Shown here: positions 1 through 64,000 of the stretch, one piece after another
Layout: each line of letters begins with the position of its first letter
Numbering within the stretch: the first letter of the stretch is position 1
The notes under the pieces: model-generated
What the model was told of the DNA's origin: nothing
Seen by the model: only the letters and a program-made list of their open reading frames with translations
The model's database searches: none
Assembly (NCBI GenBank): GCA_044892525.1
Contig: CM097885.1
Location: 24,368,001 to 24,432,000, forward strand
From: Schmidtea polychroa
Lineage: Eukaryota
Length of the DNA stretch: 64,000 bases
Direction of reading: 5' to 3'
Program-made: the position numbers and the translations under genes

Positions 1-1125
1 AGAGTGTAAAAATGTAGATTTACGCTTACAACTATATCCAAAAATGATTGAAGATGGGCTCCTAGATACTTCAAATTATCCAGTGACCGATCCGTTGTTC
101 TCTGATAAAATTTGTTCTGTAATCGGGAAAGTTAAGGATGAGAATAAAGGAAATCAATATAAAGAATGGGTGTTTCTTCGACCCAAGTGCTACTCACTCC
201 AAGGCGATAAAAACACTCTAAAAGCCAAAGGAATAAGACTAACAAACTCTAATCTTACACATGAAGCCTATAAAAAAGTGTATACTGATGGTGGAACAGT
301 GAGCATCCCACAAAAAAGAATAGGAAGTGTCAATCATCAGTTGTATACTTTCATGACAGAAAGACGAGCTCTCCAATGTTTGGACGATAAAAGGTATTGG
401 TACAATTGTAATGAAAGCTATGCCTACGGTCACTATAAGATTCGTCAAATGCATATTGCAACTGCTATGTCTAGAAATGAATGCAAATCGAAACAAGCAC
501 TTTAACAATTAAATTTATGTGAATAATAAAATATATATTGTGAATTATTTGACTTCGTTAATTAAAATATGTTTTATCATTTAATAATTCATTTGTCCAA
601 TTAATTTAGATAATTAGTTTTAAGTAAGAATTATTATTTATCATGAAAAACTTTGCTTTGTTTTGAAAAATTAATGCCCATTTTATTTTAAATTAACACA
701 GCTTTATTTTATGATTATTACTAATTAAAATTTTATTCAAATTGAAATATTATTGTTACAATTTACACTCTTGTTAGAATATATTAAATGTAAATGTAAA
801 ATAATAACAATAAAAATAAATAATAATAATAGTAGATAAAAAAAATTAAATTAAAAAAAAATTAATTAAATAACGTAAGTAATTAAAATAAAATATTAAT
901 AAATAATTAATTAATTAAATGTAATAAATTGAAAATTAACTAAAGTAATTAATTAAAACAAAAAACATAATAAAATAATTAATTAATAAATTAAAAAAAA
1001 AATTAAATAGAAGTAATAAAATAAATTTAAAAAAAAAATAAATAAAAATGATTCTATTGACCTATATTTGATCTGGACATTGGGATGACCTTGAAAGTGT
1101 CCTGGAGTCCTCACTATATACTACT
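1..1125 (+). mobile_element. Right end of a Maverick/Polinton element (element A), truncated by the window start
   Basis: pPolB C-terminus at 2-505, then a terminus 'agtgtcctggagtcctcactatatactact' ending at 1125. It parallels the right end of element B ('agtgtcctggaggtgacacatcctactact', 33600); ACTACT-3' is the reverse complement of the AGTAGT Maverick end. The TSD cannot be verified. Confidence 0.7.
2..505 (+). CDS. polB: Protein-primed family B DNA polymerase (pPolB), C-terminal fragment
   Basis: Frame is open from the window start. Motifs LDTSNY, VIGKVKDE, FLRPKCYS, KAKGI, DDKR and AYGHY; clearly homologous to the pPolBs at 28059-31974 and 56893-60817. Confidence 0.92.
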   Translation, partial: ECKNVDLRLQLYPKMIEDGLLDTSNYPVTDPLFSDKICSVIGKVKDENKGNQYKEWVFLRPKCYSLQGDKNTLKAKGIRLTNSNLTHEAYKKVYTDGGTVSIPQKRIGSVNHQLYTFMTERRALQCLDDKRYWYNCNESYAYGHYKIRQMHIATAMSRNECKSKQAL

Positions 1126-1577
1126 GTCCGATTGTCGTATTTATGATCGCTGGTAGGTATGATGATCTGGAAGTGAATGAAATATGCTTAATAGAAGGTT
1201 CTAGTTTATTCACTGGAAATTTAATTCCATGGGCCGGTAATACATATTACCGGTAATTTTCAGGGTCCTATGTTGTTGATTTTAATATCCCTGTTGTGCG
1301 TGATGAACTACATGGCCTAATTATATACGGATTAAGCCTCATCTGTCTTAAGTCTGTTTATCATACCTCTGACTCCCTGACTCAGTACCAGGCTGTCGAA
1401 GATTAAGATTTGATCAAACGATTTAATACAAACTCTTACATTGTAATTTATATTACTGTTAATTATATTACAAGGGCAAAAAGAAAAAGGCGACAATCAA
1501 AAGGATGAAATTCAAAAGTACGTATTAGTAAAACAAACAATAAAAGAGCGAATATAATTAATATTATAATTAATATT

Positions 1578-3188
1578 AGTAGTAGGATGTGTCACCTCCA
1601 GGACACTATAAAATAAGTTGTATAAAACAAGTTAAGTAGTATAAAATAAGTATAAATTAAGTTAAAATTTAAGTAGGTCAAGTTAAAATTAAGTAGATCA
1701 AGTTAAAATTATGTAGGTCACGATTATATAGTTTAAAAATATGTAGGTCAAGTTAAAATTAAGTAGATCACGACTATATAATTTAAAATATGTAGGTCAA
1801 GTTAAAAGTAAGTAGATCACGACTATATAGTTTTTAAAATATATATAGGTCAAGTTACTTTAAACATGTGTCACCTCCAGGACACACACATATATATATA
1901 TATATATAAGTAGGTCAAGTTAAAATTAAGTAGATCAAATTAAAATTATGTAGGTCACGACTATATAGGTATTAAAATATTTAGGTCAAGTTACTTTAAA
2001 TATATGTTACCTCCTGGACTCTATGTAATCAAGTATGTCAAGTTAAATTTAGATAGGTCACGACTATATAGTTTAAAAATATGTAGGTCAAGTTCAAATT
2101 AAGTAGGTCACTACTGTATAGTTTTTAAAATATGTTGGTCAATTAATTTAAACATGTGTCACCTCCAGGACACTATATAAATAAGTAAGTCAAATTAAGT
2201 AGGTCACGACTATATAGTTTATAAAAAATATGTAGGTCAAGTTATTTTAAACATGTATCCCTATAATATATACATCATTCAAAAGATATTTGAGAGTAGA
2301 GTACAATGATCATACCTTCAAAGGTGTATGGTGAATCCTTAACCTTCAAAAGGTGCAAAACCCTCGAATTTTTTCAAACTCTATAATACATGTCATTCAA
2401 AAGGTAATTGAGATGTGAGTATGATGGTCATACAATCAAAGGTGTATGGTGAGTCCTTCACCTTCAAAGGGTCAAAAACTTTCGAATTTTTTCAAACTTT
2501 ATAATATATATACATCATTCAAAAGGTATTTGAGAGTAGAGTGTGATGGTCATACCTTCAAAGATGTATGGTGAGTCCTTACCCTCAAGTGTCAAAAACT
2601 TTGATTTTTATTCAAACTGTAAATTGATCATTACAACAAATTTTCAATCCCCAAAATAAATTTCCCAACTCAAAAATTTCCCAAATTTTAAAAATTCCCA
2701 AAAACAATTTTCCCAACTCAAATTTTTTCAAAAATTAAAAAGTCCCAAAAATGAAATTCCCAAAATTTCCCAACTCAAAATTTTTCAAATTTTAAAAAGT
2801 TTTCAAAACTATTTTCCCAAATTTTCCAACTAAATAGTAAAAGAATGTTTTACAAATTTTTTTTTTCCTCGAATACATCAAACCAAAAATTTAACAAGGT
2901 TAGTCACACAAATCTAATTCTGAAATCAAACAAATGAATTTAATAAAAATTAAAATCATCAACATACACAAACGCCGCCTACTCGCCCGCCCGCCGCCCG
3001 CCCCGAAGGGGCTGGCGCGGTAGTTTGTAAATTTGGTTTAGTTTGAATATTATTATTTGCAACATAGTTTTATTATTTACAATATTCAAAGTATTAATAA
3101 CAAAGGTAAAGAAATAAATGTTTATTAAATGTATATAGTATGATACTCATTAATATACATTGAACATGCTTTACATTTGCGAACATTT
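1578..3188 (+). repeat. Left terminal inverted repeat of element B (1611 bp)
   Basis: Near-identical reverse complement of 32060-33600. Built from ~20-30 bp TAGGTCA units, GTGTCACCTCCAGGACAC copies, three ~120-bp units (2262-2620), TTTCCCAA repeats and a GC box. Confidence 0.95.
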
Positions 3189-3682
3189 GAATCATAACAT
3201 TTAGAACATACAATTACATGTCCGCAAGGTAAAAACAAAACCGATACTTGATTTTCTTTACAAATGTAACAAGTTAAATACCTTTTCCTACCATCATTGA
3301 GTTTTTTCGTTAGCTTATTTTCAATCAATTCGGATTTCGATATCCATTCATAAATCAATCTACTACTATATCCTGGTTCCAGCCTTAAATCCATACAATT
3401 CCAAAAGTATTCATTCAATGAATCATTATCTACTATTGCTTTGTCTAAATGCATCAAATAAATCGATAACTTCAAAATGCATTTATTGTAATTAAATAAT
3501 TCAATCAAATATCCAATGGAGGAATGTTTGAAAATTTCTAAAATTTTTATGGTTTCTATTTCAGTGAGAGATTCATGATTGTTCATAAAATCTTCAACGG
3601 TGCAGTTTAAAAACTTGAATGATCTCGTGGTCATCTGTAATTTCTTAATAAATTTATGAAAATACCTATATTCTGCACACAT
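3125..3682 (-). CDS. C-terminal C3HC4 RING-finger protein (IAP/MDM2-type RING), putative E3 ligase; Maverick accessory gene
   Basis: CYICKENQVSVLFLPCGHVIVCSKC...CKAC at the extreme C-terminus; AATAAA overlaps the stop. No BIR motif recognised. Confidence 0.85.
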   Translation of the reverse strand: MCAEYRYFHKFIKKLQMTTRSFKFLNCTVEDFMNNHESLTEIETIKILEIFKHSSIGYLIELFNYNKCILKLSIYLMHLDKAIVDNDSLNEYFWNCMDLRLEPGYSSRLIYEWISKSELIENKLTKKLNDGRKRYLTCYICKENQVSVLFLPCGHVIVCSKCYDSNVRKCKACSMYINEYHTIYI

Positions 3683-3990
3683 TTATAAGAGATACATTAA
3701 AACAACTCATTATTAAACAAGAAAATAATTTAAAATCAATAATGGTAGTCTAAAAATTGATGAACTCGTATTTAATCCCAATAATTAATAACATGAATTT
3801 CCTTGTTAATCGCTCAGAAACAATTCTTGAAGATAATCGTATCGAGATGCCCGTTGTGAAAAATTAATGAATTTATTGACAGTGTTAGGTATAAAAGTTT
3901 ATCAAAAACTATAATAATTCTTGGTAAATGTTGTTGCCTTTGAATAATAGTATAAACAAAATTAGTTTTTCATTTTAATTATTTTCAACC

Positions 3991-4371
3991 ATGTCGGAAA
4001 AAGGTAAAATATGAATTTTATAATGTTTATTAATTTATTTAGCATATATAATCAACTTTTTGATTGAAAAATTGGAGGAAATATCTAATGTAAAAATTAG
4101 AGAATTTATGAATGTTCCAGAGAAATTAAAATGGCCGTATTCAGACGATGAAATTAATGAAGATGATATGTCATATGAATCTGAAAATATTTCCCAGCAA
4201 GAAGATGAATGTACTGATTTGCCTAGTGAAGAAATTAAGTCATGTATTGAGAATTCTACAACAGATAAATTACCAAATGAATCTAAACAAGAAGATGAAT
4301 CTATTGTTTTTACTAATTGTATTGATCATATTGCTGAAAATATAATGAAAAGAGATTGTATTGAAGATTAA
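3991..4371 (+). CDS. Acidic hypothetical protein, 113 aa, 2 exons join(3991..4003,4043..4371)
   Basis: ATG TCG GAA AAA G|gtaaaa...tttag|CA joins in frame to ORF 4060-4371 via a 39-nt intron; AATAAA at the stop. Confidence 0.7.
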
Positions 4372-4443
4372 TAAATTTAAAACTTTAGTTATTTTCAATG
4401 ATTTAAAAACACCAAAACACTAATAAAGATGTATTAAATAAAT

Positions 4444-5038
4444 TTAACATGAACAATGTTCCTCTTCAAACTTTTCTTCGGCTTTTATAATTTTCCAAAT
4501 TGGTTTGATTCGGTCTCTGCTTACATTATACCCTTGAATTAATATGGTAACCATGCAGGTTATTTTGCTCATCTTACCATCATTGCGAATCATATCCAAA
4601 TCATATCTAATGAACATATCTTCATCATCAAATTCAATATTTTCATTGATCCTCTGAAATAATTGTCCCAATAGCATCTTGTCGTGAAACTTGATTTTGG
4701 AAAGTCTCACATTGTAGAAACATTTTTCCAGAGTTACTGGTTCCTAACAATAAATAATAATAATAATAAAATCCAAAATAATTTATACAAACTTACCTTA
4801 AATGTATAGGAAATTGGACAATACAAATAATTTAGTTTGTATTGCATGAATTCGACTGGCTTTTTTGTATCCACTCGAACATTGACCAAGGTTTCCGTGG
4901 ATAATGTCGCTTCTTTAAATTTCCTTTTTCCGAATTCCTGAGCGGCATCTGCAATTTTTATCTTCAAAACTCCTAGATTAAAAAATCAATAAATGGAATA
5001 TGTGTAAACGACAACAAACCTGTAATTTGATTATCCAT
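4444..5038 (-). CDS. Hypothetical protein, 164 aa, 3 exons complement(join(4444..4743,4797..4972,5020..5038))
   Basis: GT-AG introns of 47 nt (5019-4973) and 53 nt (4796-4744) fuse ORFs 4734-4967 and 4444-4710 in frame behind MDNQIT. Confidence 0.72.
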
Positions 5039-5229
5039 TTGTAGTAATAATATTTAATAATTTGAACCAGATATTTATACTAATTTCATTGTAAACAAGT
5101 TTCAAGTGACAGGCATGATCAAAACGTGATCAACTAGTTCATTTTATGCTAAATAACAAAGTCTGAAATGATTTATTGTATACAAAGAAATATTATAGGT
5201 TAATTAAGGTTATCACAAAACAAATATAA

Positions 5230-5611
5230 TTATATTTTATTACAACAATACATTTTTCGCAATTCCACAAGTAAAGCATGAATTATTTCTCGTTTCTGTA
5301 GATTTACAAAACATGTACAACTATCATCCCCACAAGTATTCTGTATATTATTTTTACAAAAATCACAATTTTTAACATCATCGGTATAACATGTAATCGT
5401 AGCATGATCCATATGAATTAAATCTATTACATTTATTCCAGTTATTTCATAAATTTTGTAAAACACAACTTCTGGAGCACAATACATTAAGGAATTGTTC
5501 AAATTCGGATAAAAATCTTCAATTTTATCAATCAAAATTTTTAGTATAGTTTCTAAACAAAATCAGTAAATTTAAAATAAAAAAAAAACAGTTACCTTCA
5601 TGTTCAATCAT
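5230..5611 (-). CDS. Cys-rich hypothetical protein, 2 exons complement(join(5230..5552,5596..5611))
   Basis: ATG ATT GAA CAT GAA G|gtaact...tttag|AA ACT joins in frame to ORF 5230-5535 via a 43-nt intron. H/C cluster (CDFC...CGDDSCTC) suggests Zn binding. Confidence 0.6.
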
Positions 5612-6116
5612 TGTTGAATAAATATTCAAGCAAATCCTCGTTACTTATATTTGAAGAAATTGTTAAAGATCCAATCAAATCCTTTACATCGTTTATAATT
5701 CCTTCAACAATAGTATGAAAATCTAAATTTTTAATACCTAGTACAACTATTTTACCACTCGAAAAAATATTTACACATAGTGGATTATATTTTGTATAGC
5801 GCAGAGCGGGAAATAATTCAGGCTCATATATACAATCTCCATCTAATAACTTTGCTAAATTATTCAAATTAATAGATTGTTCAACCTTGGTAGCTATAGT
5901 AAGACTTTGAACTTGAATATCTTTGATATTATATTGCAAATTCTCGAATTCGATAGGCTTCTTACAACCCATTATACGACATTTACCATTTTTGAAAAAT
6001 ATAATGGTATATTTTCCAGTTTTGTCGACATATTGTTGAGGTTTACACTTGGGGAAATTCATCATACCAACAGTTTCCAAAGACACACGACCTCTATAAT
6101 TAATATTTGTCAACAT
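5604..6116 (-). CDS. TATA-binding protein (TBP)-like protein, divergent, Maverick-encoded
   Basis: Two TBP-fold repeats: IIFFKNGKCRIMG, and INLNNLA...YEPELFPALRY...VNIFSSGKIVVLG (cf. TBP YEPELFPGLIY and LIFSSGKxVxTG). First ATG at 6116; an upstream exon is possible. Confidence 0.85.
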   Translation of the reverse strand: MLTNINYRGRVSLETVGMMNFPKCKPQQYVDKTGKYTIIFFKNGKCRIMGCKKPIEFENLQYNIKDIQVQSLTIATKVEQSINLNNLAKLLDGDCIYEPELFPALRYTKYNPLCVNIFSSGKIVVLGIKNLDFHTIVEGIINDVKDLIGSLTISSNISNEDLLEYLFNND

Positions 6117-6143: not shown

Positions 6144-6191
<48 letters not shown>

Positions 6192-6194
<3 letters not shown>

Positions 6195-9100
6195 GCCCGG
6201 TTTTAGGCATAGGCGACGTCGGCAGCAGCCTAGGGCGCCGATTTACAAGCGGGCGCCAAATAGTTCTGCTTTTTTTATCAAGTAAATTAAATATTTTATA
6301 AACTTTCTATCTTTATATTGATATATACATATGTATGAATTTGTATATATATGAATTTGTATGTACGTAAAACATGTAATTCCATCGTTGTTTTAGTCCG
6401 ATACCGATTACTTATTTCTTTTAAAATTTAAAAAAATACAACGGAAAATCGATTTAAAAAAATATTTTGCAAGTTCAAAAAAGTTAACTGAAAAGCGGTT
6501 TTAAAAAAAATTTAGCATATAGCATGCTCTGAAATTTTTTTAAATTACGCAATAATTTTTAGTTTTATTTTAAAAGAATAAAGTCACATGCAGTAAAGTT
6601 TTAAAAGACTAAAGTAAATGTTAAAAAAGTTAAAAAATAAATAAACAGAAAGTGAAAAAAAAAATAAAATTTAATTAGTGCAGGGCTCAAATTTTTTTTA
6701 TTTAAAGTATATATAATTTCGGTCGTACTTCCAGTATAATTTTTACATATATACAACACAGTAATTTAATTTATATTGGATTTTTCTACACCTATTATTA
6801 AATCTATTATATTCTATTAATTTTTACTTGAGGTAGCATAATGGCAGATAGAAAAAAATTATCTGGCGCACAAAATAGAAAACGTAAAGCTGAAAAGAAA
6901 AATGAAGAAAAAAAGCAAGAAGGTGCTTTTCTGAAATATATTTGTCGTCAACAATCACAAGATAAAAATCGAAATGAAATGACTCCGAGAAAACAAGTAG
7001 ACTGCAATTTGGAAGAGCAAATGGATAGGAACTCTACAACTAGAAATGCAGAGGTGCCTATTTTGACTGAGTTTCCACATACGAATGTGGAAGAAACTAT
7101 AGAAGAAACTGAAGTTGAAACAATTGAAGAAACTGTTGAAGAACCTATAGAAGAAATTGTATTAGAAACTATAGAAGACACTGAAGAAATTTTAATTAAT
7201 GAAACTTTGGAAATATTAGAAAGCGTAAATTCGAGTCTTGATTATAGTGATCCGGCAACTTGGTTAAATTCACATGACTTACGTTCTGGCCGTTTGAGGC
7301 AAATTTTGGTTGAACACGGACCAGAACAAATTGAAGAATTTGATTTTCCTCAAAATGAGAGCCATAGAAAATTTTCAATGAATTTTTATAGAAGGAGACT
7401 TGCAAATGGAGAAGAAATGCGGCGTCATTGGCTACAGTATTCCAAAACAACTAATTCGGCATTCTGCTTTTGTTGCAAAATTTTTAATAATAACCAGCGT
7501 GTAATACATCTCTCCGATAAAGGATCAAGCGATTGGAAAAATATGTCTGTAATTTTAGAAAGACATGAGAAAAATAAGGATCATTTAATTAATTTTCAAA
7601 CTTGGAAGGAGCTAGAATTGCGTTTAAAAAAGAATAAAACTATTGACCAGGATAATTTGCGTCTCATAAAACAAGAAGAGAGACACTGGCAACAAGTCTT
7701 AGAGCGTCTTATAGGTCTAGTTAAAGTGCTTGCTACGCAAAATATTGCATTTCGCGGAAGCAATGAAAAATTGTATTCTCCTGGAAATGGAAACTTCCTT
7801 AGCTTTGTAGAATATTTGGCCTCTTTTGATCCAATTATGGGTGAGCATCTTCGCAGAATAAAGAACAATGAAACACAAGTTCATTATTTGGGAAAAGATA
7901 TTCAGAATGAGTTAATACAACTTTTATCTAAGAGTATTAAAACAAAAATTTTAAAATCGATTTCCATGGCTAAATATTTTTCAATAATCCTGGATTGCAC
8001 ACCAGACGTTAGCCATACTGAACAAATGACGTTGATTATTCGTTTTGTCCATACAAATACAGAAAATTGTGATTTAGATCCCATATGCATAAGAGAACAT
8101 TTTTTGGGATTTGTGAAACTAACAGATACAACTGGTGCTGGTATGACCGATGAAATCGTTCAGATGTTAGCAGATATGTCATTACCTATTGAGAACTTGC
8201 GTGGCCAAGGATACGATAATGGTAGCAATATGAAAGGCAAAGAAAATGGCGTGCAACGGCGAATTCTGAATCTAAATCCACGAGCACTATTTGTTCCTTG
8301 TTCTGCGCATTCTTTGAATCTGGTTGTTAATGACGCTGTAAGCTGTTGTTTAGATGCTACATCATTTTTTATGTTAGTGCAACGAATATATGTCTATTTT
8401 GCCGCTTCAACACGTCGATGGGAAGTTTTAAAACGTCATGCTTCAAACTTGACAGTGAAGCCATTGAGCGATACAAGATGGGAGAGCCGAATCGATGCCC
8501 TTAAACCTCTACGCTATCAGCTAAGTAAAGTTATTGCTGCACTTATTGATATTTTTCAAGATACTTCTCAAACAGGAGTTTCTGGTAATACTTCACGTAT
8601 AGAAGCACAGGGCCTTGCTAAAGCTATTTCGAATTTCGAGTTTGTAGTTTCTGTTATTATCTGGTATGATATTCTTTTCAACATAAATATTACAAGAAAA
8701 CAACTTCAATCTGAGAAAATTAATATTCAAGATGCTATGAAGCTACTAGAAGATACCAAAAAATTTCTATTCAACTCCCGAAATGATGAAGGTTTTGAAA
8801 GAATATTGGTAGATGCGCGAGAACTTGCTGAAGAATCAGAAATTTCCCCAATCTTTAAACAAACTCAGCGTATCAGAAAACAAAAAAAACAGTTCGAATA
8901 TGAAGCCAACGATGAGCCCATTCAGAACCCAAAAGAAAAATTTAAGATCAGCTTTTACTTCGCAGTTTTGGATAGAGCTTTAAAATCTGTTGAGCAAAGA
9001 TTCACCCAAATGTCAACGATAAATTCAACATTTGGATTTCTATACAACATACATAATTTGCAATATATTTCGTCAAAGAAAATATTAGAGGATTGTCTTA

Positions 9101-9648
9101 AACTGGAAAATTTTTTACGGCACGATGATTCTAAAGATATTGATGGTACAGATTTATTGAACGAATTGATATTTATAGCTAGACATATTCCAAAAAACTT
9201 ATTGCCGGAAGATGTACTTAATTATATTTGTAAAAATAATATAGTGGACAGCGTTCCAAATATATTTGTTGCTTTGCGAATTTTATTAACCCTACCAGTT
9301 TCTGTGGCAAGCGGTGAACGAAGCTTTTCGAAGCTTAAACAGATCAAAACATATATAAGATCTACAATGTCACAAGAACGGCTTGTGGGATTAGCAATAT
9401 TGTCGATTGAACACGAAATGGCGCGTGATATAGATACGAAGTTGCTGCTTGAAGATTTCACTAAACTAAAAGCACGAAAAATTAAATTTTAAATGGTTTT
9501 TGTTTTCATATATATTTTTGTGTAATAAATAAATGAAGTATAGTTATTTTATTTTCATTTACTTCTTTAATTATTGGGTTTGTTTCTAGACTAGAGGCGC
9601 CATTTTTTTAGTTTGCCTAGGGCGCCAAATACTCTAGCGTCGGGCCTG
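6192..9648 (+). mobile_element. Autonomous hAT DNA transposon (3457 bp) nested in element B
   Basis: Ends CAGGCCCG...CGGGCCTG, subterminal CCTAGGGCGCC motifs at both ends, 8-bp flanks ATATATAT in a (TA)n tract, intact transposase. Confidence 0.93.
6841..9492 (+). CDS. hAT transposase (ZMYM1-like group; TTF-type Zn finger, RNase H-like DDE core, C-terminal dimerisation domain), 883 aa
   Basis: WLQYS..AFCFCC, FSIILDCTPDVSHTEQ, GQGYDNGSNMKG, CSAHSLNL, TRWESR, SVASGERSFSKLKQIKTYIRSTMSQERL; ORF uninterrupted. Confidence 0.96.
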   Translation: MADRKKLSGAQNRKRKAEKKNEEKKQEGAFLKYICRQQSQDKNRNEMTPRKQVDCNLEEQMDRNSTTRNAEVPILTEFPHTNVEETIEETEVETIEETVEEPIEEIVLETIEDTEEILINETLEILESVNSSLDYSDPATWLNSHDLRSGRLRQILVEHGPEQIEEFDFPQNESHRKFSMNFYRRRLANGEEMRRHWLQYSKTTNSAFCFCCKIFNNNQRVIHLSDKGSSDWKNMSVILERHEKNKDHLINFQTWKELELRLKKNKTIDQDNLRLIKQEERHWQQVLERLIGLVKVLATQNIAFRGSNEKLYSPGNGNFLSFVEYLASFDPIMGEHLRRIKNNETQVHYLGKDIQNELIQLLSKSIKTKILKSISMAKYFSIILDCTPDVSHTEQMTLIIRFVHTNTENCDLDPICIREHFLGFVKLTDTTGAGMTDEIVQMLADMSLPIENLRGQGYDNGSNMKGKENGVQRRILNLNPRALFVPCSAHSLNLVVNDAVSCCLDATSFFMLVQRIYVYFAASTRRWEVLKRHASNLTVKPLSDTRWESRIDALKPLRYQLSKVIAALIDIFQDTSQTGVSGNTSRIEAQGLAKAISNFEFVVSVIIWYDILFNINITRKQLQSEKINIQDAMKLLEDTKKFLFNSRNDEGFERILVDARELAEESEISPIFKQTQRIRKQKKQFEYEANDEPIQNPKEKFKISFYFAVLDRALKSVEQRFTQMSTINSTFGFLYNIHNLQYISSKKILEDCLKLENFLRHDDSKDIDGTDLLNELIFIARHIPKNLLPEDVLNYICKNNIVDSVPNIFVALRILLTLPVSVASGERSFSKLKQIKTYIRSTMSQERLVGLAILSIEHEMARDIDTKLLLEDFTKLKARKIKF

Positions 9649-9734
9649 ATATATATATATGTAATATTATAGAGTAATTAAATCATTTTATTCTTTACGA
9701 TATAAACAAAATAACTTTTAAATGAATATTAAAA

Positions 9735-10361
9735 ATGGAACTAAGAAATGATGCTGTATATCAAATAGTCGGACCAAGTGGTAGCGGCAAAACTTTGTTT
9801 GTTTGCAAATTACTAAAATCACATTTATTCAAATCAAAATTTAACAAAATTTATTGGCATCGAGGTGCTGATCAAGAACACGGATTGACTCAATCAAGTT
9901 TCTGTAAATTGAAAAATATGAAAATAGTAGAGGGATTTGATAAAAATTGGTCCAGTAGACTAAAGAAGGGGGATGTCATAATTATTGATGACTTGTATCA
10001 AGAGGCTAATAAAGAAAAGAATTTCAATAATTTATTTACCAAAATCAGTAGACACGTTGGTGTAACTGTTATTTTTATAACTCAAAATCTATTTCATCAA
10101 GGCGGTGCACATAGAACTCGTAATTTAAATGTTCAATATTTGGTTGTTTTTAAAAACCCTAGAGATGCAACAGTTATAGATTTTCTTGCAAGACAAGCAT
10201 ATCCAAATAATCGTAATTTTCTGATTAATGCATTTCAAGATGCTACAAAACAACCTCATGGATATATATTTCTTGATTTCACACAACAGTGTCCTGATGA
10301 TTTACGAGTGAGAACTGATATTTTCAATAAAGAAGGGTCAATGGTTTATAAACAAAGTTAA
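9735..10361 (+). CDS. Genome-packaging ATPase (A32-like, FtsK/HerA superfamily)
   Basis: Walker A GPSGSGKT, Walker B IIIDD, SRH..IFITQNLF, FKNPRD, PHGYIFLD as in Maverick ATPases. Confidence 0.93.
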   Translation: MELRNDAVYQIVGPSGSGKTLFVCKLLKSHLFKSKFNKIYWHRGADQEHGLTQSSFCKLKNMKIVEGFDKNWSSRLKKGDVIIIDDLYQEANKEKNFNNLFTKISRHVGVTVIFITQNLFHQGGAHRTRNLNVQYLVVFKNPRDATVIDFLARQAYPNNRNFLINAFQDATKQPHGYIFLDFTQQCPDDLRVRTDIFNKEGSMVYKQS

Positions 10362-10379
10362 AACCTGGATTGACTGATC

Positions 10380-10892
10380 ATGTTTTTGAGAGCGAGAGTT
10401 AAAAATCTTAGAAACGATATTGAAAAAGAAAAAATTAGTGTTGCACCAAAAACTAGTTATACACCTCCTAAAATACTTGTTACAGAAAACTTTCCATCAA
10501 TGAATCTCATTTCAAAAAATCCAAAATCTAAACCAAATAAAAAGCCTAAACAAGTAAAAACAATAAAAAATCATCGTAGTTTTCCATTTTTTAATGCATT
10601 GTTAAAGGCACCTAGCATGAAAAGAATGACTATTTTGCAATCATTTCCAAATTTTGTTGTAGATGATTTACTTGATATTATACTCAAAGTAGTTAAAGGC
10701 AAGACTATAATTAGCAAATCTGACAAAATTATTTTAAAAAAGTACCAAAAACCTCTGTTGACGCTAGTAAATAATAAAAATCGTAAGCAAATGAGAAAAA
10801 TTATATATAAACAACAAGGAGGGTTTATTGCTGCATTAATACCATTGGCATTATCATTATTAGGTGGAGCAGGTCTACTAAAATCGTCATAA
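10380..10892 (+). CDS. Basic putative virion core protein ending in QQGGF plus a hydrophobic tail
   Basis: Lys-rich. The C-terminal QQGGFIAALIPLALSLLGG resembles the GG-F/hydrophobic ends of adenovirus pX-like and Maverick core proteins. Confidence 0.7.
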   Translation: MFLRARVKNLRNDIEKEKISVAPKTSYTPPKILVTENFPSMNLISKNPKSKPNKKPKQVKTIKNHRSFPFFNALLKAPSMKRMTILQSFPNFVVDDLLDIILKVVKGKTIISKSDKIILKKYQKPLLTLVNNKNRKQMRKIIYKQQGGFIAALIPLALSLLGGAGLLKSS

Positions 10893-10895
10893 ACA

Positions 10896-11123
10896 ATGGG
10901 TGCTAATCCTTCATTACCTAATGTAAATTTTAATTTTAAATCTTCATGTTGTAATGGAGAAGATATGGACGAATCCAAAAGACGAAGCAGGTTTTGGTGG
11001 AGTCGAAAAATTAAAGAAAAGAGTTCAGAATTCGAAGATAGAAACCCAGAATTGGTTATCAGGTCAGCTCGCGTACAGTTTGAACAAGCCAATGCTGAAA
11101 AGATTTCCAACAAGACCATATAA
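10896..11123 (+). CDS. Small putative N-myristoylated protein overlapping the integrase 5' end
   Basis: ATG 3 nt after the previous stop; MGANPS fits MGxxxS; SSCC motif; last 170 nt overprint the integrase in another frame. Confidence 0.45.
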   Translation: MGANPSLPNVNFNFKSSCCNGEDMDESKRRSRFWWSRKIKEKSSEFEDRNPELVIRSARVQFEQANAEKISNKTI

Positions 11124-12010
11124 AACATTTGATATTGATGATTTATGGCAAATGGATTTGATGGAAATGATACCATATTCAAAGATTAATAAAGGATACA
11201 AGTATATTTTGACATGCATTGATGTTTTCAGTCGTTTTGCTCGAGCAATTCCTACCAAAACTAAGTCGGCCGAGGAAATATCCAAAGCAATTAAACTCAT
11301 GTTTACAGATGGATATCCAGACAATTTAAAAACAGATTTAGGTAAAATATTTGTAAAATCAAATTCATTATTTTTTCTTAGGAAAGGAATTTTACAACAG
11401 TAAAGTGAAACAAATCCTGGATAAACTCAAAATCAACCATTACTCTGTCCATTCTCAATTCAAAGCTGCTCTTGTTGAAAGATTTAATCGAACTCTGAGA
11501 GACAAGCTAAAAAAGTTGTTTGTACATCAGGGTAATAAGACATGGATAAATGTTTTACCTCAAATTATATATGGTTATAATCATTCATCACATCAAGGTT
11601 TGAAAGGTTTGAGACCTGTAGATATTTCATCAAAAACATCATTGAGATTGAAAAAGGTTGAAAAAATTAAAAAACCAAAATATAAAGTCGGTGACCATGT
11701 TAGAATTAGTAAAATTAGCGCATCACCATTCATTAAAAATTTCGATACAAATTGGAGTGATGAAGTATTTGTAATTTCAAAAATAAATACTAAGCAGAAT
11801 CCTGTAATGTATGTCGTCAAAGATAGTGATGAAAATATTGTACAAGGGAAATTTTATGAGCAAGAATTACAAGTTATTCCTCCCCCAAAAGTATTTAGAA
11901 TTCAAAAAATACTGAAAACTAAAAATAAAGGCAAGGATAAACAATACTATGTCAAATGGCACGGTTATCAAAAACCGTCATGGATATCGTCAAAAGACCT
12001 AGTAAAATAA
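10954..12010 (+). CDS. int: Retroviral-like DDE integrase with C-terminal chromodomain, 338 aa, join(10954..11341,11382..12010)
   Basis: WQMDL (D); TDLG|KEF (D), restored by removing the 40-nt GT-AG intron 11342-11381; VERFNRT (E); chromo-like IQKILK...YYVKWHGY..SWI. Confidence 0.93.
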
Positions 12011-13010
12011 ACTTTTATATTATTTTACCAAGCAATAGCTGTCCACTTATTCATCCAGATAATAAAGCCAGCAAATTCAGGGTCAATCTTCAAAATCCTA
12101 TATATTTGGATAATAGCTGGGAAGTTGCTCTGTTGGATTTTACATTTGTATACCAAGCCTTTCCATTTTATAGTAAGGCTAAAATTGGATACAAAAAGAA
12201 TGAGTGGCAGGATAGATTATTGTCTATGATCATTGATAATGCAGATGATGAAGTTCGGTTGTCTAATTCAACTGATTCAGCTGTGAAAATGTGTATTAAC
12301 CATCCATATATAGTAGTTGAATGTAAACATTATCCTTTTACTGTAAAATTTGATAGTTTGGAAATGGCAAAACGATTGGAATTAAAAACCCAAAGTCATA
12401 AAGTTCATTCCGATAAATTCACTGTGCTACGACCGGGATATTCCAAAACTGGACAGCGATTTGAACCAATTTTATTTACAGTTTCATATCCAGGTATAAG
12501 TCTGGTACATTTGAGTTCAAAGATAATTTATACATTTCGAAATTGGATGAATTGCAGTCATATTTAAAACAAAGTGGTTTATTTAAATCATTGGAAATAT
12601 CAGACAGATGCAAATTCAGTTTAAATCCCGAATTTACTGAAATTATTTTTGATGCAAATCTAATAAAAACATTAGGATTATCAAAAGCAACATATGCTCA
12701 AGATGATCAAGGTGTAAATACACCGAAAATAATTAAACTTCACCAACAAATGTTCATCTATAGTAATATTGTTGATCCTGTAATTGTTGGCGATTCTTTG
12801 GTCCCACTCCTGAAATCGGTTTGGATTGAAAAATATGAACATGATGAAGTTGTCAATATAAATATCGATAATCCCATGTATTTACCTGTTTCAACCTCAT
12901 GTATAAACAATATAGAAATAAATATACGTGATGATTCTGGTAAATTAATTGAATTTCCAAAAGATTCAAAAACTCATTTGACGCTACATTTTCGTAAAGT
13001 AGATGGCTAA
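11956..13010 (+). pseudogene. Minor capsid (penton-like) protein, frameshifted near 12500-12545
   Basis: N-terminal FYIILPSNS...WEVAL and C-terminal MFIYSNIV...VGDSLVPLL...IEINIRDDSG...LHFRK lie in two overlapping frames. Start may be at the later ATG (11980). Confidence 0.8.
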
Positions 13011-13371
13011 TTCGGATATTATTAGTATGTACAGTGGTAGCCAATCTGGCGGTGAATTACCATATTTTATCGGTAAACAGTACGGATCAGGATGGTTACG
13101 AACAATTGGTAGATTTGCACTTCCTATTCTTAAACGTATTGGTAGTTTTTGTATGAAAACTGCAAAAGACGTTATTATGAATGATCAGAAAATATTACCA
13201 TCCCTAAAATCTAATGCTTTGGCTGAATTAGGAAAAGTTATACCAAGTGTTGCTGGTATGTTTCAAAAAGATGAAGCCCCAGCTCCAGCACCTGCTCACA
13301 AACGTAAAAAACACCGATCATCACGTATAAACAAACGAATGAAAGGCCATGGAACTATATTTGCAAAATGA
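13003..13371 (+). CDS. Putative virion core/membrane-active protein with QxGG and QxGxG motifs
   Basis: QSGGELPYF, QYGSGWLRTIGRFALPILKRIG (amphipathic), basic tail ending in IF; lies between the two capsid genes. Confidence 0.75.
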   Translation: MANSDIISMYSGSQSGGELPYFIGKQYGSGWLRTIGRFALPILKRIGSFCMKTAKDVIMNDQKILPSLKSNALAELGKVIPSVAGMFQKDEAPAPAPAHKRKKHRSSRINKRMKGHGTIFAK

Positions 13372-14593
13372 TTTGTGGTAAATCCGAATTATGTATATTT
13401 GATAGACCAAGTCCCCAAGCGGTGATTGAATTTGGGGCGTTTGAGGAAGTTTTTCCAATGAATTCAATTACTGATAGTAGAAATGATGTATAATTTTACA
13501 TCAATGGTTCTCAAACAGAATATTTAGATTTGAACGATATTTTATTGTCTGTTCAGATCAAGGTTATAGATAAAGATAAAAAAGCTTTGGGTGATGCTGC
13601 TGATGCAATACCGAACAATTTCATGTTTCATACTCTGTTTAAAGATGCAGTTCTCGGATTTAATAATAGCAAGATTGAGGGTGGTAATAATACATTCATT
13701 CACAAGGCTTTGATAGAAACTATTTTAAATTACAATTCCGTTACTCAATTCCGATTGGTCTTACTCCAATGGGATATTCTGCAACCGACGATGAAAGAAA
13801 AAAGTGGATTAAAGGCTCAAAAACATTCACCATGTGCTCATCGTTACAACTCGATTTTATGGATCAACCGAAATATTTGCTTCCAGGAGTTAATGTCCAC
13901 ATTCGATTGAAAAGATCCGATTCTGCATTAACTCTTACTAGTGCTACAGGTGCACCAATATGTCAATTAGTTGATGCAAAATTATTAGTGAGAAGAGTTC
14001 GAGTAGACCCATCAGTATTAGCGGGTCATCAATTAGGGCTTAATTCGAAACATGCAATTTATCCATTAAAAACAAAGGAAATTGTACAATTTGCAATTGC
14101 TAAAGGTGCTTCATCATTCTATAAAGAACAGATATTTGGTGATAGAAGAATGCCTAATTTTATTCTGGTAACATTTCAAAGTGAAGCACAATATAATGGA
14201 TCATATACTGCTTCCAGCACAATTTTCAAAAACTTTGCTGTTACTTCATTAACTCTGTCGAAAAATACTGATTATCGAGAAACATATACTCAAGATTTCG
14301 ACACTGATAATTACTGTTCTACATATATGCAAAGTATTGTTAGAAATCTGGGATATTTAGATAAAAATTTGAATTGTGGAATAACTCTTGAAGAATTCAA
14401 AACAAAATACCCATTTTTCACATTTGTTTTAGCCCCCAATTTTGATTTAAATCAGAGTCAATTACCACAAAACGGGAATTTACGATTGGATATAAAGTTT
14501 GCGAGAGCCATTACAGAACCTGTGCATGTTATAATATATGGAGTATTTGAAAATGAAGTTCAAATTACTGCAAACAGGACCGTGCTGGTATAA
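13368..14593 (+). pseudogene. Major capsid protein (double jelly-roll), disrupted
   Basis: MICGKSELCIF start at 13368, in-frame TAA at 13491-13493, EYLDLND, frameshift near 13740-13765 (duplicated CAATTCCG), C-terminus GNLRLDIKFA...VIIYGVFENEVQI. Confidence 0.87.
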
Positions 14594-14997
14594 ATGTATA
14601 CAGAAATACAGAAAGTTGTCATGGAGTAAGTTGTTTTTTATACTGTTTAATTTATTAAAATAGTTCTGTTCAGGTTAATCGAATTGGAAAACAAATATTA
14701 AGAAATGAATTTTTAGGAGTTTTTCCTCTCGATAAAATACCATTTTTGAAAAATAATCAAGCCATAATCGTCAATACCCATTCATCTCATCTTGGCGGAG
14801 AGCATTGGATTGCAATCTATGTAAAACCAGATAAGATACATGTATTCGATCCTATGGGTTTCTATTATCCTGCTTTATTGGTTTCGAAACTACAAACAAT
14901 GGGCAAACCTATTGTATATAATAAAACAATGTATCAACACCCTTTAACTCGTACGTGCGGACAACATTGTTTAGGATGGCTTATGTCTATTAAATAA
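14594..14997 (+). CDS. Adenain-like (C5/Ulp1-fold) cysteine maturation protease, join(14594..14625,14664..14997)
   Basis: FLGVFPLD, IVNT...GEHW (His), FDPMG (Asp), YQ...TCGQHC (Cys). A 38-nt intron gives MD|SVQVNRIG in frame. Confidence 0.9.
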
Positions 14998-15107: not shown

Positions 15108-15273
15108 GTTTTATTATTTTTATAATTATTATTATGTTTTATATTATTACAATAATAACAAAGTCCGTCATGACGGTGCATGCTCCGTGCATGATTAACA
15201 AAGGCATGATATTATCACGTTATAAACAATTGTAATACAAATTTCATCATAATTATTTTATTACAATTTTAAA

Positions 15274-15666
15274 ATGTCATCAATTAATACTAAAATCAAT
15301 GTGGTTCTTTCGAGAAATGGTAAGGATTTTTAATTACTTATTTATATTAAATAATTAAATTTACAATTAGAAACTCGTACCGTTAACTCGTCAGTCTTCA
15401 ATAGGCGATTAGGTTCTGGAAATGATGGAAATGGTAAATTTATAATTATTATAAATACTTTTATTATTATTATTATCTTTATTATTTAGACAATTATTTT
15501 GGTGATTGGGCCGCAATTACCGAAAATGACGACATATTAGATATTTCAAACATATTCCAAAATGGTAATTTATTAGTTTAATTAAAATTGTATTACCATT
15601 AACATTTTAGAATCTTCTGTTTCGAATAACGAATCAAAATGTATGTTTCATTTTATTAATATATAG
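15274..15666 (+). CDS. Four-micro-exon ORF absent from the ORF track (15274-15319, 15371-15433, 15490-15564, 15611-15640 or -15666); small gene or 5' exons of pPolB
   Basis: Three phase-1 GT-AG introns (51, 56, 46 nt), each after AATG; spliced frame is stop-free: MSSINTKINVVLSRN/ETRTVNSSVFNRRLGSGNDGN/DNYFGDWAAITENDDILDISNIFQN/ESSVSNNESK. Confidence 0.65.
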
Positions 15667-15867
15667 TTTTTAATTAATTAATAACTTAATAATATAGATT
15701 TTATGTAAATATAATGTAAATATAACTTTATGTAAATTATTTCAGTAATCATTAAAATAGTAATTGAGTAGGTAGTTAGGAGCCCGCTGCAACAATGGGG
15801 GTACCCCCCCCCCCCCCTGTTGCACGATTTTTTTATGTTGCAACTTTTTATTACGCAATTGTTCCAC

Positions 15868-16560
15868 ACTATAGTGAGGGGGTCTCGATGGTCCTGGGAT
15901 TTTCAATACAAAAAAATTTTTTTTCAATACAAAAACGATGGTCCTGGGATTTTCAATACAAAAAATTTTTTTCAATACAAAAAGGCGGTCTCACTAAAAA
16001 AGCATGGAATTTTCAGACTATAGTGAGGGGGTCTCGATGGTCCTGGGATTTTTAATACAAATAAAATTTTTTCAATACATAAATCCGACTACCACTAAAA
16101 AAGCATGGAATTTTCACACTATAGTGAGGGGGTCTCGATGGTCCTGGGATTTTCAATACAAATAAAATTTTTTCAATACATAAATCCGACTACCACTAAA
16201 AAAGCATGGAATTTTCACACTATAGTGAGGGGGTCTCGATGGTCCTGGGATTTTCAATACAAATAAAATTTTTTCTATACAAAAATCCGACTATCAATAA
16301 AAAAGTCAAGGATTTATCACACTATAGTGAGGGGGTCTCGATGGTCCTGGGATTTTCAATACAAAAAAATTTTTTTCAATACAAAAAGGCGGTCTCACTA
16401 AAAAAGCATGGAATTTTCAGACTATAGTGAGGGGGTCTCGATGGTCCTGGGATTTTCAATACAAAAAAAAATTTTCAATACAAAAATCCGACTACCACTA
16501 AAAAAGCCAAGGATTTTTCAGACTATAGTGAGGTGAGTCTCCTTGGTCCTGAGAAATAGG
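15868..16560 (+). repeat. ~101-bp tandem repeat (ACTATAGTGAGGGGGTCTCGATGGTCCTGGGATTTTCAATACA...)
   Basis: Unit starts at 15868, 16017, 16118, 16219, 16321, 16421 and 16522; mirrored at about 27050-27565. Confidence 0.9.
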
Positions 16561-16584
16561 TGGTCTACACTAAAAACGTGGTAA

Positions 16585-17230
16585 ATTTTTCAATTAAAGT
16601 AAATAATGGTCCAAATTTTTCAATTACAGTAAATAATGGTTCTAAAAAATTAAATTACAGTAAATAATGGTTCTAAAAATTAAATTAAAGTAAATTATGG
16701 TCCAAATTTTTAAATTACAGTAAATTATGGTCCAAAAAATTGAATTAAAGTAAATTATGGTCCTAAAAATTAAATTACAGTAAATTATGGTTCTAAAAAT
16801 TAAATTACAGTAAATTATGGTTCTAAAAAATTAAATTACAGTAAATAATGGTTCTAAAAAATTAAATTACAGTAAATAATGGTCCTAAAAATTAAATTAC
16901 AGTAAATTATGGGTCTAAAAATTAAATTAAAGTAATTATGGTCCAAATTTTTCAATTACAGTAAATAATGGTTCTAAAAAATTAAATTAAAGTAAATTAT
17001 GGTCTAAATAAGTAAATTATGGTTCAAATTTTTCAATTAAAGTAAATAATGGTCCAAATTTTTCAATTAAAGTAAATTAAGGTTCTAAAAATTAAATTAC
17101 AGTAAATAATGGTCCAAATTTTTAAATTAAGTAATCAATGGTAAAAAAATTTTAAATAAGTAAATTAAAGTAATAATTTTTAAATAAGTAAATTAAAGTA
17201 ATGTAATAAGTAAATTAAAGTAAGATTTTA
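16585..17230 (+). repeat. ~30-bp AT-rich tandem repeat (AATTACAGTAAATAATGGTTCTAAAAAATTA)
   Basis: About 20 degenerate units; mirrored at about 26330-27025 and present at about 61500-61960. Confidence 0.9.
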
Positions 17231-17364
17231 AAATTTATTAACAAAAAGTTGAAGGTGTTTGAGAATTGAAATTTTTTAATGAAAATTTTTATGGAATAAT
17301 TTTTTAAGTAATTTTTAATGGAAATTTTTATGAAATATTTTTCAAAGACAAATTTTAATAATAA

Positions 17365-18450
17365 TTCAACAACAAACCAACAACTTAGTACCAACAACCA
17401 GTAACTTACGAACATGTTTTAACAACTAGATACCTACAACTAGTTACTAACAACTAGTTACCTGATATCAACTACTCACAACCAACAACAACCAGTTACT
17501 AAGCATTATTAACCAACTACTAAGTACCTACAACTAGATACCACGTACTAAATAACTCTCAAACAACCAAGTACCTCCAACTAGATACTAACAACTAGAT
17601 ACCAAGTACCTACAACTAGATACCACGTACTAACTGACTCTCAAACAACTAGATACTAACAACCAGTTACCTGCTACCAAGTACTTACAACTAGTTACTA
17701 ACAACCAACCAACTAGGTACTAGATACCAAGTACTAACAACCAACAACAACCAGGTACTAAGCATTATCAACCAACTAAATACTAAGTACTAACAACCAA
17801 CCAACTAGGTACTAGATACCAAGTACTAACAACCAACAACAACCAGGTACTAAGCATCATCAACTAACTACTAAGTACCTACAACCTACAACTAGATACT
17901 AACAACCAGTTACCTGATACCAAATACTTACAACTAGATACCAAGTACTATCAACCAAAAACAACCAACCAACTAGGTACTAGATACCAAGTACTAGCAA
18001 CCAACAACAACCAGGTACTAAGCATTATCAACCAACTAAATACTAAGTACTAACAACCAACCAAATAGGTACTAGATACCAAGTACTAAGCATTATTAAC
18101 CAACTACTAAGTACCTACAACCAACTAGCTACCACCTACCAAGTACCTACAACTAGATACTAACAACCAGTTACCAAGTACCTACAACCACCTACCCATT
18201 AACTAGCTACAACCAGCTAACAACTAGCTACCAACTACCAAGTACTAACAACCAACTAGCTACCACCTACCAAGTACTAACAAACAGTTACCAACTACTA
18301 AGCATTAATTACCTACAACTAGTTACTAACAACTAGATACCAAGTACATACAACCAACAACTAAGCATTATCAACCAAGTACTAACAACCAAGTAACTTA
18401 CCTAGTACTAAGCACTGTCAACTAGATACCAAACACTTACAACCAGATGA
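17365..18450 (+). repeat. Strand-biased mosaic repeat of short words (CAACTAGATAC, CAAGTACT, AACAACC, TAAGCATT)
   Basis: C/A-rich top strand; mirrored G/T-rich copy at about 25035-26120; related block at about 62250-63420. Confidence 0.88.
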
Positions 18451-18743
18451 CCACATGAAATTATTGGTTAAGTATGAAAATAAGGATTATATTTAGTTGT
18501 TAAGTAAATTATGGTGTAAAATTAAGAAATAAAGAATAATTAGGTAAATTAAAGTTAAAAATTTTAAATAAGTAAATTAAGGTTCAAAATTTAAAATTAA
18601 GTATCCAATGGTTCAAATTTTAAATTAAAGCTAAATAAGTAAATTAAAGTAAGATTTTTAAATTTATTATCAAAAGATTGAATAACCACCAACTTTTTTG
18701 AGAAATGTAATTTATAATGAAAATTTAAATGGAAATTTAAATG

Positions 18744-18825
<82 letters not shown>

Positions 18826-21204: not shown

Positions 21205-21510
21205 AAAAATCATATATTCCCATCTTAACCCATGTCTCATTAAATTTAACCGACTATATTCCCATCTTAACCCATCCTTCATTAAATTCAATCGACTATA
21301 TCTCCCTTACAGTGATATATTTCCATCTTATCTGATCTCTCATTAAATCTAACCGACTATATCCCCTTAAAAAATTATATATTCCCATCTTATCTGATCT
21401 CTCATTAAATCTAACCGACTATATCCCTTTAAAAATCATATATTCCCATCTTAACCCATCCCTCATTAAATTTAATAACCGACAATATCCCATCTTATCC
21501 GATCTCTCAG
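21205..21510 (+). repeat. ~40-60 bp tandem repeat in the foldback spacer (ATATTCCCATCTTA...TCATTAAAT...CCGACTAT)
   Basis: 5-6 degenerate units visible. Confidence 0.75.
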
Positions 21511-21739
21511 CAAATATTTCTACCCTTTTAAACATCTATCCGATTATATCCCTTATTTTCCCTAAAGATTTCACCCACTTGAGCCCTTTAATATATATCA
21601 ATCCTCTTAAAATCCTCAGAGAACTTCAAAAATATGACTTTTAATTAATTGCTATAGGAACCAGACAAATAATAAGAGCCCACTAAAAGATCAAAATTCA
21701 CTAAATTTTCTACAAATATTTACCATCAAATACTGGATA

Positions 21740-21793
<54 letters not shown>

Positions 21794-24676: not shown

Positions 24677-24740
<64 letters not shown>

Positions 24741-27689: not shown

Positions 27690-27733
27690 TAATTGTAATA
27701 GTAATAATTATAATAGTAATTGTACTAGTAGTA

Positions 27734-27853
<120 letters not shown>

Positions 27854-31974: not shown

Positions 31975-32059
31975 CCATTGGATAGAGCTCTTCGAGACCT
32001 TTTTAATGAACCATTATTCAATATAATCTATCGAAGGTAATCCTTAAAATTCAAATTTA

Positions 32060-61130: not shown

Positions 61131-64000
<2,870 letters not shown>

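Follow-up and report, generated by a model that had tools for sequence, protein, structure and literature searches.

A two-lobed TBP-fold protein in a Maverick element of Schmidtea polychroa and its candidate role at a YATAAACR promoter box

Results

Layout of the element

The window, a stretch of 64,000 nucleotides of Schmidtea polychroa DNA, contains a Maverick at 1577-33600 that is bounded by TIRs and a target duplication. Several hallmarks of Mavericks are found at this locus: TIRs (about 1.6 kb long), AGT ends, a 6-bp target duplication, polymerase B, an rve integrase and an A32 ATPase. The same (AGT)2 TIR ends, 6-bp duplication, polymerase B, integrase, ATPase and core ORFs are described for Mavericks/Polintons in PMC8097293. 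The parts of the element are as follows.

1571-1576, target duplication AATATT
1577-3191, left TIR, starting with AGTAGT
3125-3682, minus strand, RING-finger ORF (Pfam), YATAAACR absent upstream
3951-3958, plus strand, YATAAACR, 40 nt before the ATG at 3991
4432-4990, minus strand, probably spliced gene whose relatives are predicted to be OB-fold, T7 gp2.5-like ssDNA-binding proteins
5254-5601, minus strand, Cys-rich ORF, downstream of the TBP-like gene
5604-6116, minus strand, TBP-like ORF, 170 aa in one open frame, core fold at residues 1-152
5690-5697, minus strand, YATAAACR inside the TBP-like ORF, 97 nt before the Cys-rich ORF
6145-6154, minus strand, canonical TATA-like box TATATATA at the end of a (TA)n tract, 36/38 nt before the TBP-like start
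6192-9648, plus strand, hAT transposon foreign to the Maverick, within the (TA)n tract that separates the TBP-like gene from the ATPase
9701-9708, plus strand, YATAAACR, 34 nt before the ATPase start
9735-10361, plus strand, A32-like packaging ATPase (Pox_A32, E 1.6e-7)
10347-10354, plus strand, YATAAACR in the end of the ATPase (codons Tyr-Lys-Gln), 33 nt before the next gene
10380-10892, plus strand, conserved 170-aa core ORF, PZ-like, no Pfam match
10806-10813, plus strand, YATAAACR, 90 nt before a 75-aa ORF
10888-10895, plus strand, YATAAACR (CATAAACA), 8 nt before the 75-aa ORF and 66 nt before the integrase
10954-12007, plus strand, retroviral-type (rve) integrase, two frames in this copy
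11956-13010, plus strand, minor-capsid-like gene, two frames in this copy, with the variant GATAAACA upstream
12902-12909, plus strand, YATAAACR, 101 nt before the 122-aa ORF
13003-13371, plus strand, conserved 122-aa basic core ORF, PW/pVII-like
13326-13333, plus strand, YATAAACR, 42 nt before the major-capsid-like start
13368-14593, plus strand, major-capsid-like gene, two frames in this copy
14671-14994, plus strand, protease-like frame that matches a metagenome Maverick ORF at 42%
15221-15228, plus strand, YATAAACR preceding a short ATG-led, probably spliced frame
16011-27568, long foldback insertion of about 12 kb, arms at about 16011-20494 and 23013-27568
28059-31974, plus strand, DNA polymerase B with an EndoVII-like domain, two frames here (phrog_1907, E 2.6e-21)
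32057-33600, right TIR
33601-33606, target duplication AATATT

The ATG at 3991 likely leads via a short intron into an acidic ORF at 4108-4371, and the two frames of the integrase suggest a possible intron in that gene as well. We take the polymerase B to be of the protein-primed type. The PZ-, PW/pVII-, protease-, minor-capsid- and major-capsid-like labels are assumptions of ours that follow gene order. The capsid- and protease-like ORFs are conserved and lie in the order expected of Mavericks, and for the capsid-, PZ-, PW- and protease-like ORFs no library match (Pfam, PHROG, PDB sequence) supports the labels. Among the ORFs of the element and its siblings that were scanned, none matched TFIIB in Pfam, and no RNA polymerase gene was seen among the ORFs of the element.

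Throughout the family, the ATPase lies head-to-head with the TBP-like gene, and no co-oriented Maverick gene is present upstream of the ATPase box. The hAT transposon is absent from 29/29 other loci. Sibling copies without the foldback insertion jump from about 15630 to 27750. The arms of the insertion are 4.5 kb long and made of tandem repeats, and a related foldback arm (61271-64000) begins near 61.2 kb, adjoining a second polymerase gene. Two more related elements of Maverick type are marked by their polymerase B genes, at 56893-60794 (minus strand) and 44-505 (plus strand), which match a sibling polymerase at 62-77% and 54%, respectively; within the 64-kb window no TBP-like gene was found with either. 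The 3' end of the RING gene lies within the TIR (31994-32120 versus 3062-3191), and several sibling copies carry the whole RING gene at the opposite end, so inversion between the TIRs seems to reshuffle the ends.

The minus-strand ORF encodes a two-lobed TBP fold

An earlier note on this DNA had described an ORF of about 170 aa, in one frame and with two TBP-type repeats, inside the TIR-bounded element. Here we confirmed that 5604-6116 encodes a two-lobed TBP-fold protein. Its translation contains both YEPELFPAL and IFSSGKIVVLG. The Pfam TBP profile (PF00352) matches residues 66-131 with an E value of 3.5e-17 (62.5 bits versus a gathering cut-off of 22.9), and the PDB sequence matches, to E 2.7e-6, are TBPs without exception. 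Sequence-level scoring by Pfam and by the PDB sequence search detects the second repeat only; the note had called the second repeat well kept and the first short and divergent. In the first repeat, the span from Asn to Phe is 37 residues versus 47 in host TBP, and the span from Gly to the second repeat is 20 versus 33.

The AlphaFold model, built on an alignment of 93 sequences, has a pLDDT of 93.7 and a pTM of 0.81. It aligns with human TBP over 149 residues at Z 13.3 (rmsd 2.7, 24% identity), and because the alignment to whole TBP cores spans residues 1-149/152, both lobes are present. The closest unrelated folds, the TBP-like saddles of Rep proteins, reach Z 6.7. In the ESM Atlas the matches were TBP clusters, at 0.95-0.96 but with low recognition.

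The DNA-facing surface is rebuilt and helix H2 is missing

Residues were counted in 201 family proteins, with positions mapped onto cellular TBP by alignment; the yeast TBP numbering, the residue roles and the lobe orientation used in this mapping are as we take them to be. The earlier note had proposed to look at the DNA-intercalating Phe residues and the TFIIB stirrup. Three of the four Phe residues are kept (F41 in 193, F102 in 199 and F118 in 199 proteins), which we take to be yeast F116, F190 and F207. The first intercalating Phe (yeast F99) falls on position 26, in a region where the local alignment is loose; this position is Pro in 181/201. Both stirrup glutamates are kept, with E98 in 186 (and Asp in 10 more) and E100 in 199 proteins. 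In TBP, these two C-lobe glutamates are TFIIB contacts (PMC7221094).

The Maverick protein thus shares with cellular TBP (human 1cdw, yeast 1ytb) the two-lobed saddle of about 150 residues, three intercalating Phe residues, the C-lobe Pro and both TFIIB glutamates. It differs in that the first Phe is lost and the N-lobe is shorter, by about 10 residues ahead of Phe41 and by 13 following Gly50. In addition, DNA-facing Val, Thr, Leu, Ile and Asn residues of cellular TBP are replaced by near-invariant others: Asn6 (146 of 201), Arg47 (192), Met49 (199), Ser71 (Ser or Thr in 198), Arg106 (161) and Asn116 (199). In the subclade of the 5604-6116 protein helix H2 is missing as well, as the model has no helix of at least 4 residues between positions 51 and 65; the sister subclade retains a helix at this position, but a non-basic one. 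The canonical TBP features that the protein does not have are therefore the full set of four intercalating Phe residues and the basic helix H2. This basic N-lobe helix is the surface for TFIIA, TAF1, Brf1 and Mot1 (PMC7221094, section 12).

The TBP-like gene belongs to a wide Maverick family under purifying selection

A protein search of the 781-Mb genome found at least 150 copies at 99-100% identity, and the genome contains 277 exact matches to a 26-base word of the gene (0 for the reversed control). Four more subfamilies, of 145-156 aa and 53-55% identical to the 5604-6116 protein, are present in the genome, again head-to-head with the ATPase. Among the five subfamilies dN/dS is 0.18-0.36, with 0.18 for the sole unsaturated pair, and the gene is under purifying selection. 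Synonymous-only counts within subfamilies were left out of this evidence because the loci had been pre-chosen for 100% protein identity.

Database homologs number 107, at 33-94% identity, and a profile search extends beyond these. The linkage survey that the earlier note had called for found a Maverick core gene at 38 of 80 metagenome loci with a TBP-like gene, and at 26 of the 35 that are at least 3 kb long; gene-context counts rest on metagenome loci and on loci found by the ATPase alone. The phylogeny that it had also called for places 12 family members on one side of a 100/99 branch and 19 host, cellular and viral TBPs on the other (LG+G4, bootstrap unsettled; a quick tree gave 91). The clade is thus separate from host and viral TBPs, but AU tests neither name nor exclude a donor (p 0.115-0.418). 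Six or more TBP/TRF-type genes (L113-L121) are present in the host. In L115, L117 and L118 a single frame covers both repeats, and L117 pairs with L118 at 100/99. An IMG/VR search with the family alignment gave 1 locus, on a giant-virus-like contig, with a TBP outside the clade, and the 7-15 IMG/VR TBPs tested were all outside it. Scans of IMG/VR with the MCP and the ATPase gave no loci, and thus no independent complete TBP-less group-2 Mavericks.

The earlier note had allowed for a one-off copy of a host gene. A recent retrocopy is refuted: the gene, which may have an ancient cellular origin, is common to a wide Maverick family.

Two classes of promoter box

The first motif set consisted of de-duplicated 70-nt windows upstream of orthologous genes. 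YATAAACR occurred before the ATPase in 23/27 cases, the PZ-like gene in 13/14, the 75-aa ORF in 6/6, the MCP-like gene in 8/12, a DEDD-like gene in 11/14 and a PLA2-like gene in 10/12. It was rarer before the mCP-like gene (6/17), the integrase (6/17), the pVII-like gene (1/7), a 92-aa ORF (2/5) and the protease-like gene (0/4). In total, 86 of 135 upstreams, among which some starts may be mis-picked, carried the box, versus about 3 by shuffle (mean at most 1.1 per gene) and 0 in antisense. Its distance peaks at 31-36 nt before the ATG; some boxes lie 6-17 nt before the ATG, too near for a TATA-type start. The C is kept in 97/135 upstreams (ATAAACA 76, ATAAACG 21). Upstream of the TBP-like gene itself YATAAACR was found in 0/62 cases, and TATAWAWR in 28/62 versus 5.9 by shuffle; directly before the ATG of the TBP-like gene there is a TCATT Inr-like word.

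In the subfamilies of the genome itself, where starts were picked by hand and "late" follows gene type, YATAAACR was present at 22/23 late-module (packaging/capsid) starts and at 0/19 other starts. The single miss is the ATPase of a sibling copy, with TATAAAAT in place of the box. The canonical TATAWAWR was present at 15/19 other starts, in 14 of these 33-41 nt before the ATG, and YATAAACR sits at the same distance.

The box also overlaps the end of the ATPase gene. In 27 ATPases from clade-bearing elements, 24/24 Y/H-K-Q/R sites use box-forming codons, against a background of 64% TAT and 67% AAA in the same genes, in sequences that are related and not independent. This indicates a constraint on the DNA. 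In the window as a whole YATAAACR is at chance level (24 seen versus 24.8 expected), and the signal is therefore positional.

Two other readings of the box were rated low. A poly(A) signal does not fit its absence after the last gene of a run in L034. For a Forkhead site, compared by the FOX consensus, the box occurs in one orientation and GTAAACA is found in only 2/135 upstreams, versus the counts for ATAAACA and ATAAACG given above.

Mavericks without this TBP clade lack the box

A search with the ATPase alone gave ten loci, of which one (L196) was left out, as it has no usable gene start. The two loci with this TBP clade (L190 and L191) carry YATAAACR at 10/11 core starts within 120 nt, two group-1 upstreams being shorter than that. 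The seven loci in which this clade was not seen carry it at 0/21 core starts; five of the seven are fragments, whose elements may have had a TBP gene outside the contig, and the other two (L194 and L198) encode different TBPs. In a second high-copy Maverick family of the same genome the count is 0/10 starts, which gives 0/31 for the pooled Mavericks without this clade. No TBP-like match was found in the stretches of this second family that were examined. It (L177, L179-L183) consists of near-identical ATPase copies (145 matches scored), with AT-rich stretches before the starts.

Fisher's test for the co-occurrence of clade and box gives p 1.7e-7, which is overstated, as clade and box possibly arose just once, on one Maverick branch, and the co-occurrence would then amount to little more than a single independent event. 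The association, though clean, may go back to one origin.

The two different TBPs are observations in their own right. L198 is a Maverick contig that stands in a bacterial MAG record, likely through contamination. Its stretch 4714-5831 contains the gene of a divergent TBP (Pfam E 2.3e-18), which overlaps a TFIIB-like gene with a TFIIB repeat (E 6.8e-7) and a Zn ribbon. This looks like a separate Maverick TBP-TFIIB pair, and there is no YATAAACR before the L198 core genes. L194, a Maverick fragment, encodes at 2443-2976 a more cell-like two-repeat TBP (E 2.3e-33) outside the clade, head-to-head with a capsid-like gene; a BIR gene is also present.

Neighboring and accessory genes

The relatives of the 4432-4990 gene have a predicted OB fold that resembles T7 gp2.5 and ASFV CP312R at middling scores (Z 6.8-7.2), and an ESM Atlas search with this neighbor returned nothing. 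The conserved neighbor is thus predicted to be a T7 gp2.5-like SSB and not a transcription partner. It adjoins the TBP-like gene in 27 loci. Sibling subfamilies also carry a Bcl-2-like gene (L185:2599-2955 and L161:6270-6581), whose matches, at E 4e-4 and 3e-3, stay below the cut-off, and an ORF of 166 aa that starts like a signal peptide, both with canonical TATA boxes upstream.

Discussion

The TBP-like protein is probably a minimal viral late-promoter factor for YATAAACR, analogous to herpesvirus ORF24. We infer binding of the box, the start site and the timing from sequence. According to this proposal, host TBP and Pol II would transcribe the TBP-like, SSB-like and other accessory genes early, from canonical TATA boxes. 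The conserved C-lobe (Phe102, Pro103, Phe118) of the TBP-like protein would then kink the 5' YATA half of the box, and the rebuilt polar N-lobe (Asn6, Arg47 and Met49, with the first Phe lost) would accept the C at position 7, a base disfavored by host TBP. Through stirrup residues Glu98 and Glu100, host TFIIB and Pol II would be brought to the packaging and putative capsid genes, and loss of the N-lobe helix H2 would remove the TFIIA/TAF1/Brf1/Mot1 surface, allowing escape from host control. The protein is thus likely a built-in switch that would point host Pol II at the late genes. Weighing against this proposal are the late-module genes with few boxes, the boxes very near an ATG, the chance-level count in the window, the tolerance of host-type TBP for the C and the possible single origin of clade and box. 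The earlier note had suggested that the protein redirects Pol II to AT-rich promoters of the element. The redirection is supported, but instead of generic AT-rich promoters we find YATAAACR before one gene class.

Sequence data guessed to be RNA add little to this. One set (X1) may be DNA, since its contigs cover the TIR and run through the divergent promoter. A thin set from the same study (X6), also guessed to be RNA, shows loose oligo-A/T ends, one of them 58 nt after the ATPase-end box and beside A-rich DNA; a single contig, of depth 3, covers the 3' end of the TBP-like gene.

Viral TBPs are already known in nucleocytoviruses and herpesviruses. The herpesvirus vTBPs (KSHV ORF24, EBV BcRF1, HCMV UL87) are likewise viral TBP mimics with a polar face that act with host Pol II at a TATA-variant box before late structural genes. 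The face of KSHV ORF24 is polar and Asn-rich, which distinguishes it from TBP, and its late promoters carry TATTWAA, where the Maverick box is YATAAACR (PMC12529657). ORF24 is, however, a large multi-domain protein with an N-terminal Pol II-binding domain and an extra C-terminal domain, working in a six-protein complex, whereas the Maverick protein is a bare saddle of 145-170 aa. In ORF24, moreover, all four Phe residues are kept, the glutamates for TFIIB are absent and Pol II is bound directly, while the Maverick protein keeps the glutamates. Herpesvirus late transcription needs six viral proteins, and here we identified no viral transcription partner. The fold similarity to a BcRF1 model is weak (E 0.016). 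At the level of sequence features, then, the Maverick protein would work like a herpesvirus vTBP, but it is not a member of that family.

Most nucleocytoviruses encode their own RNA polymerase. BFVD gave fold matches of the Maverick protein to nucleocytovirus TBP-like proteins, which are likewise divergent, two-lobed and without the N-lobe regulator signature (PMC7221094). In that account they are usually paired with a viral TFIIB and their adapter residues have diverged; the scanned ORFs of this element, in contrast, show no TFIIB. A TBP label also appears in the legend of Fig. 5 of Starrett et al. 2021 (PMC8502044; preprint 10.1101/697771), for MELD viruses with adintovirus-like PolB. A TBP in this broad virus group is therefore not wholly unreported, but the legend gives only the label for a Polinton-related virus, and the accessible text of that paper holds no analysis, family survey or promoter motif for it. 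The main text of PMC8097293 does not mention TBP, TATA or an element promoter motif. The readable supplements of PMC8502044 and PMC7221094 gave no matches to the TBP family or the box, and beyond the legend we found no account of either in the openly accessible article texts covered.

Four alternatives have to be weighed. The first is that YATAAACR is a weak TATA box for host TBP/TFIID, or a site for another host factor, and that the TBP-like protein represses or competes until replication. We take the C(-25) variant of AdML to read TATAAACG. A host-type TBP has been crystallised on this variant (1qn3) and thus tolerates the C at position 7, where Hoogsteen pairs avoid the clash with Leu (PMC4402545). 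Moreover, in plant protoplasts 27% of the activity remained with TATAAAcg (PMC10005294), so host TBP could weakly read YATAAACR. The shared ATG distance of the two box classes and a protein without the TFIIA/TAF1 surface would also fit a repressor. However, a pure blocker has no need of the two TFIIB glutamates, which are nevertheless kept, and the strict retention of the C is odd for a host-TBP site; for another host factor, the Forkhead reading fits poorly. We consider this alternative unlikely, though not negligible.

The second is that gene and box were merely co-inherited, and that the protein bends TIR or origin DNA for protein-primed replication or packaging, the box being read otherwise or marking 3' ends. 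The predicted SSB next to the TBP-like gene, the early-type promoter of that gene, the occurrence of TBP-like saddles in Rep proteins and the nearly single phylogenetic event behind the co-occurrence all agree with this. The conserved TFIIB stirrup does not, and the box precedes the ATPase even though no co-oriented gene lies upstream; a 3'-end mark is also opposed by L034, where no box follows the final gene of the run. This possibility seems to us rather unlikely.

The third, a decoy also raised in the earlier note, is that the protein dampens host transcription, either by sequestering TFIIB or by sitting on the TATA boxes of the host. A stirrup that is kept while the regulatory helix is lost would suit such a function, as would the host-modulating genes of the element (RING) and of the sibling subfamilies (the Bcl-2-like gene). 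We favor it less, as conservation in the protein is highest on the surface turned to the DNA: the most invariant residues lie there and differ from host TBP. A decoy also leaves the two promoter-box classes unexplained, and we regard it as very unlikely. Finally, a functionless recent retrocopy of a host gene has next to no probability: the gene lacks introns, unlike that of host TBP, and AU tests did not reject host TBP or a paralog as sister of the clade (p 0.115-0.234), but the identity to host TBP and its paralogs of only 17-24%, the 277 exact-match sites, five subfamilies and 107 homologs, and the separate clade and purifying selection refute it.

If the late-promoter reading is right, this Maverick branch would have two-stage transcription through a stand-alone TBP of 145-170 aa and YATAAACR, together with host TFIIB and Pol II. 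This would be the smallest orthogonal pair of its kind, with other Mavericks using unrelated TBPs and one its own TFIIB. We see the chances of this wider view as evenly balanced.

Maverick particles have not been observed (PMC8097293). A dedicated factor and its box would provide a testable control point for turning on the Maverick capsid genes, and YATAAACR versus canonical TATA may serve as a sequence marker for late versus early genes. As a natural TBP with altered specificity, the protein would be useful to test how the saddle reads TATA position 7, and the pair is possibly a small orthogonal promoter system. Together, factor and box argue that Mavericks may be regulated viruses and not passive transposons.
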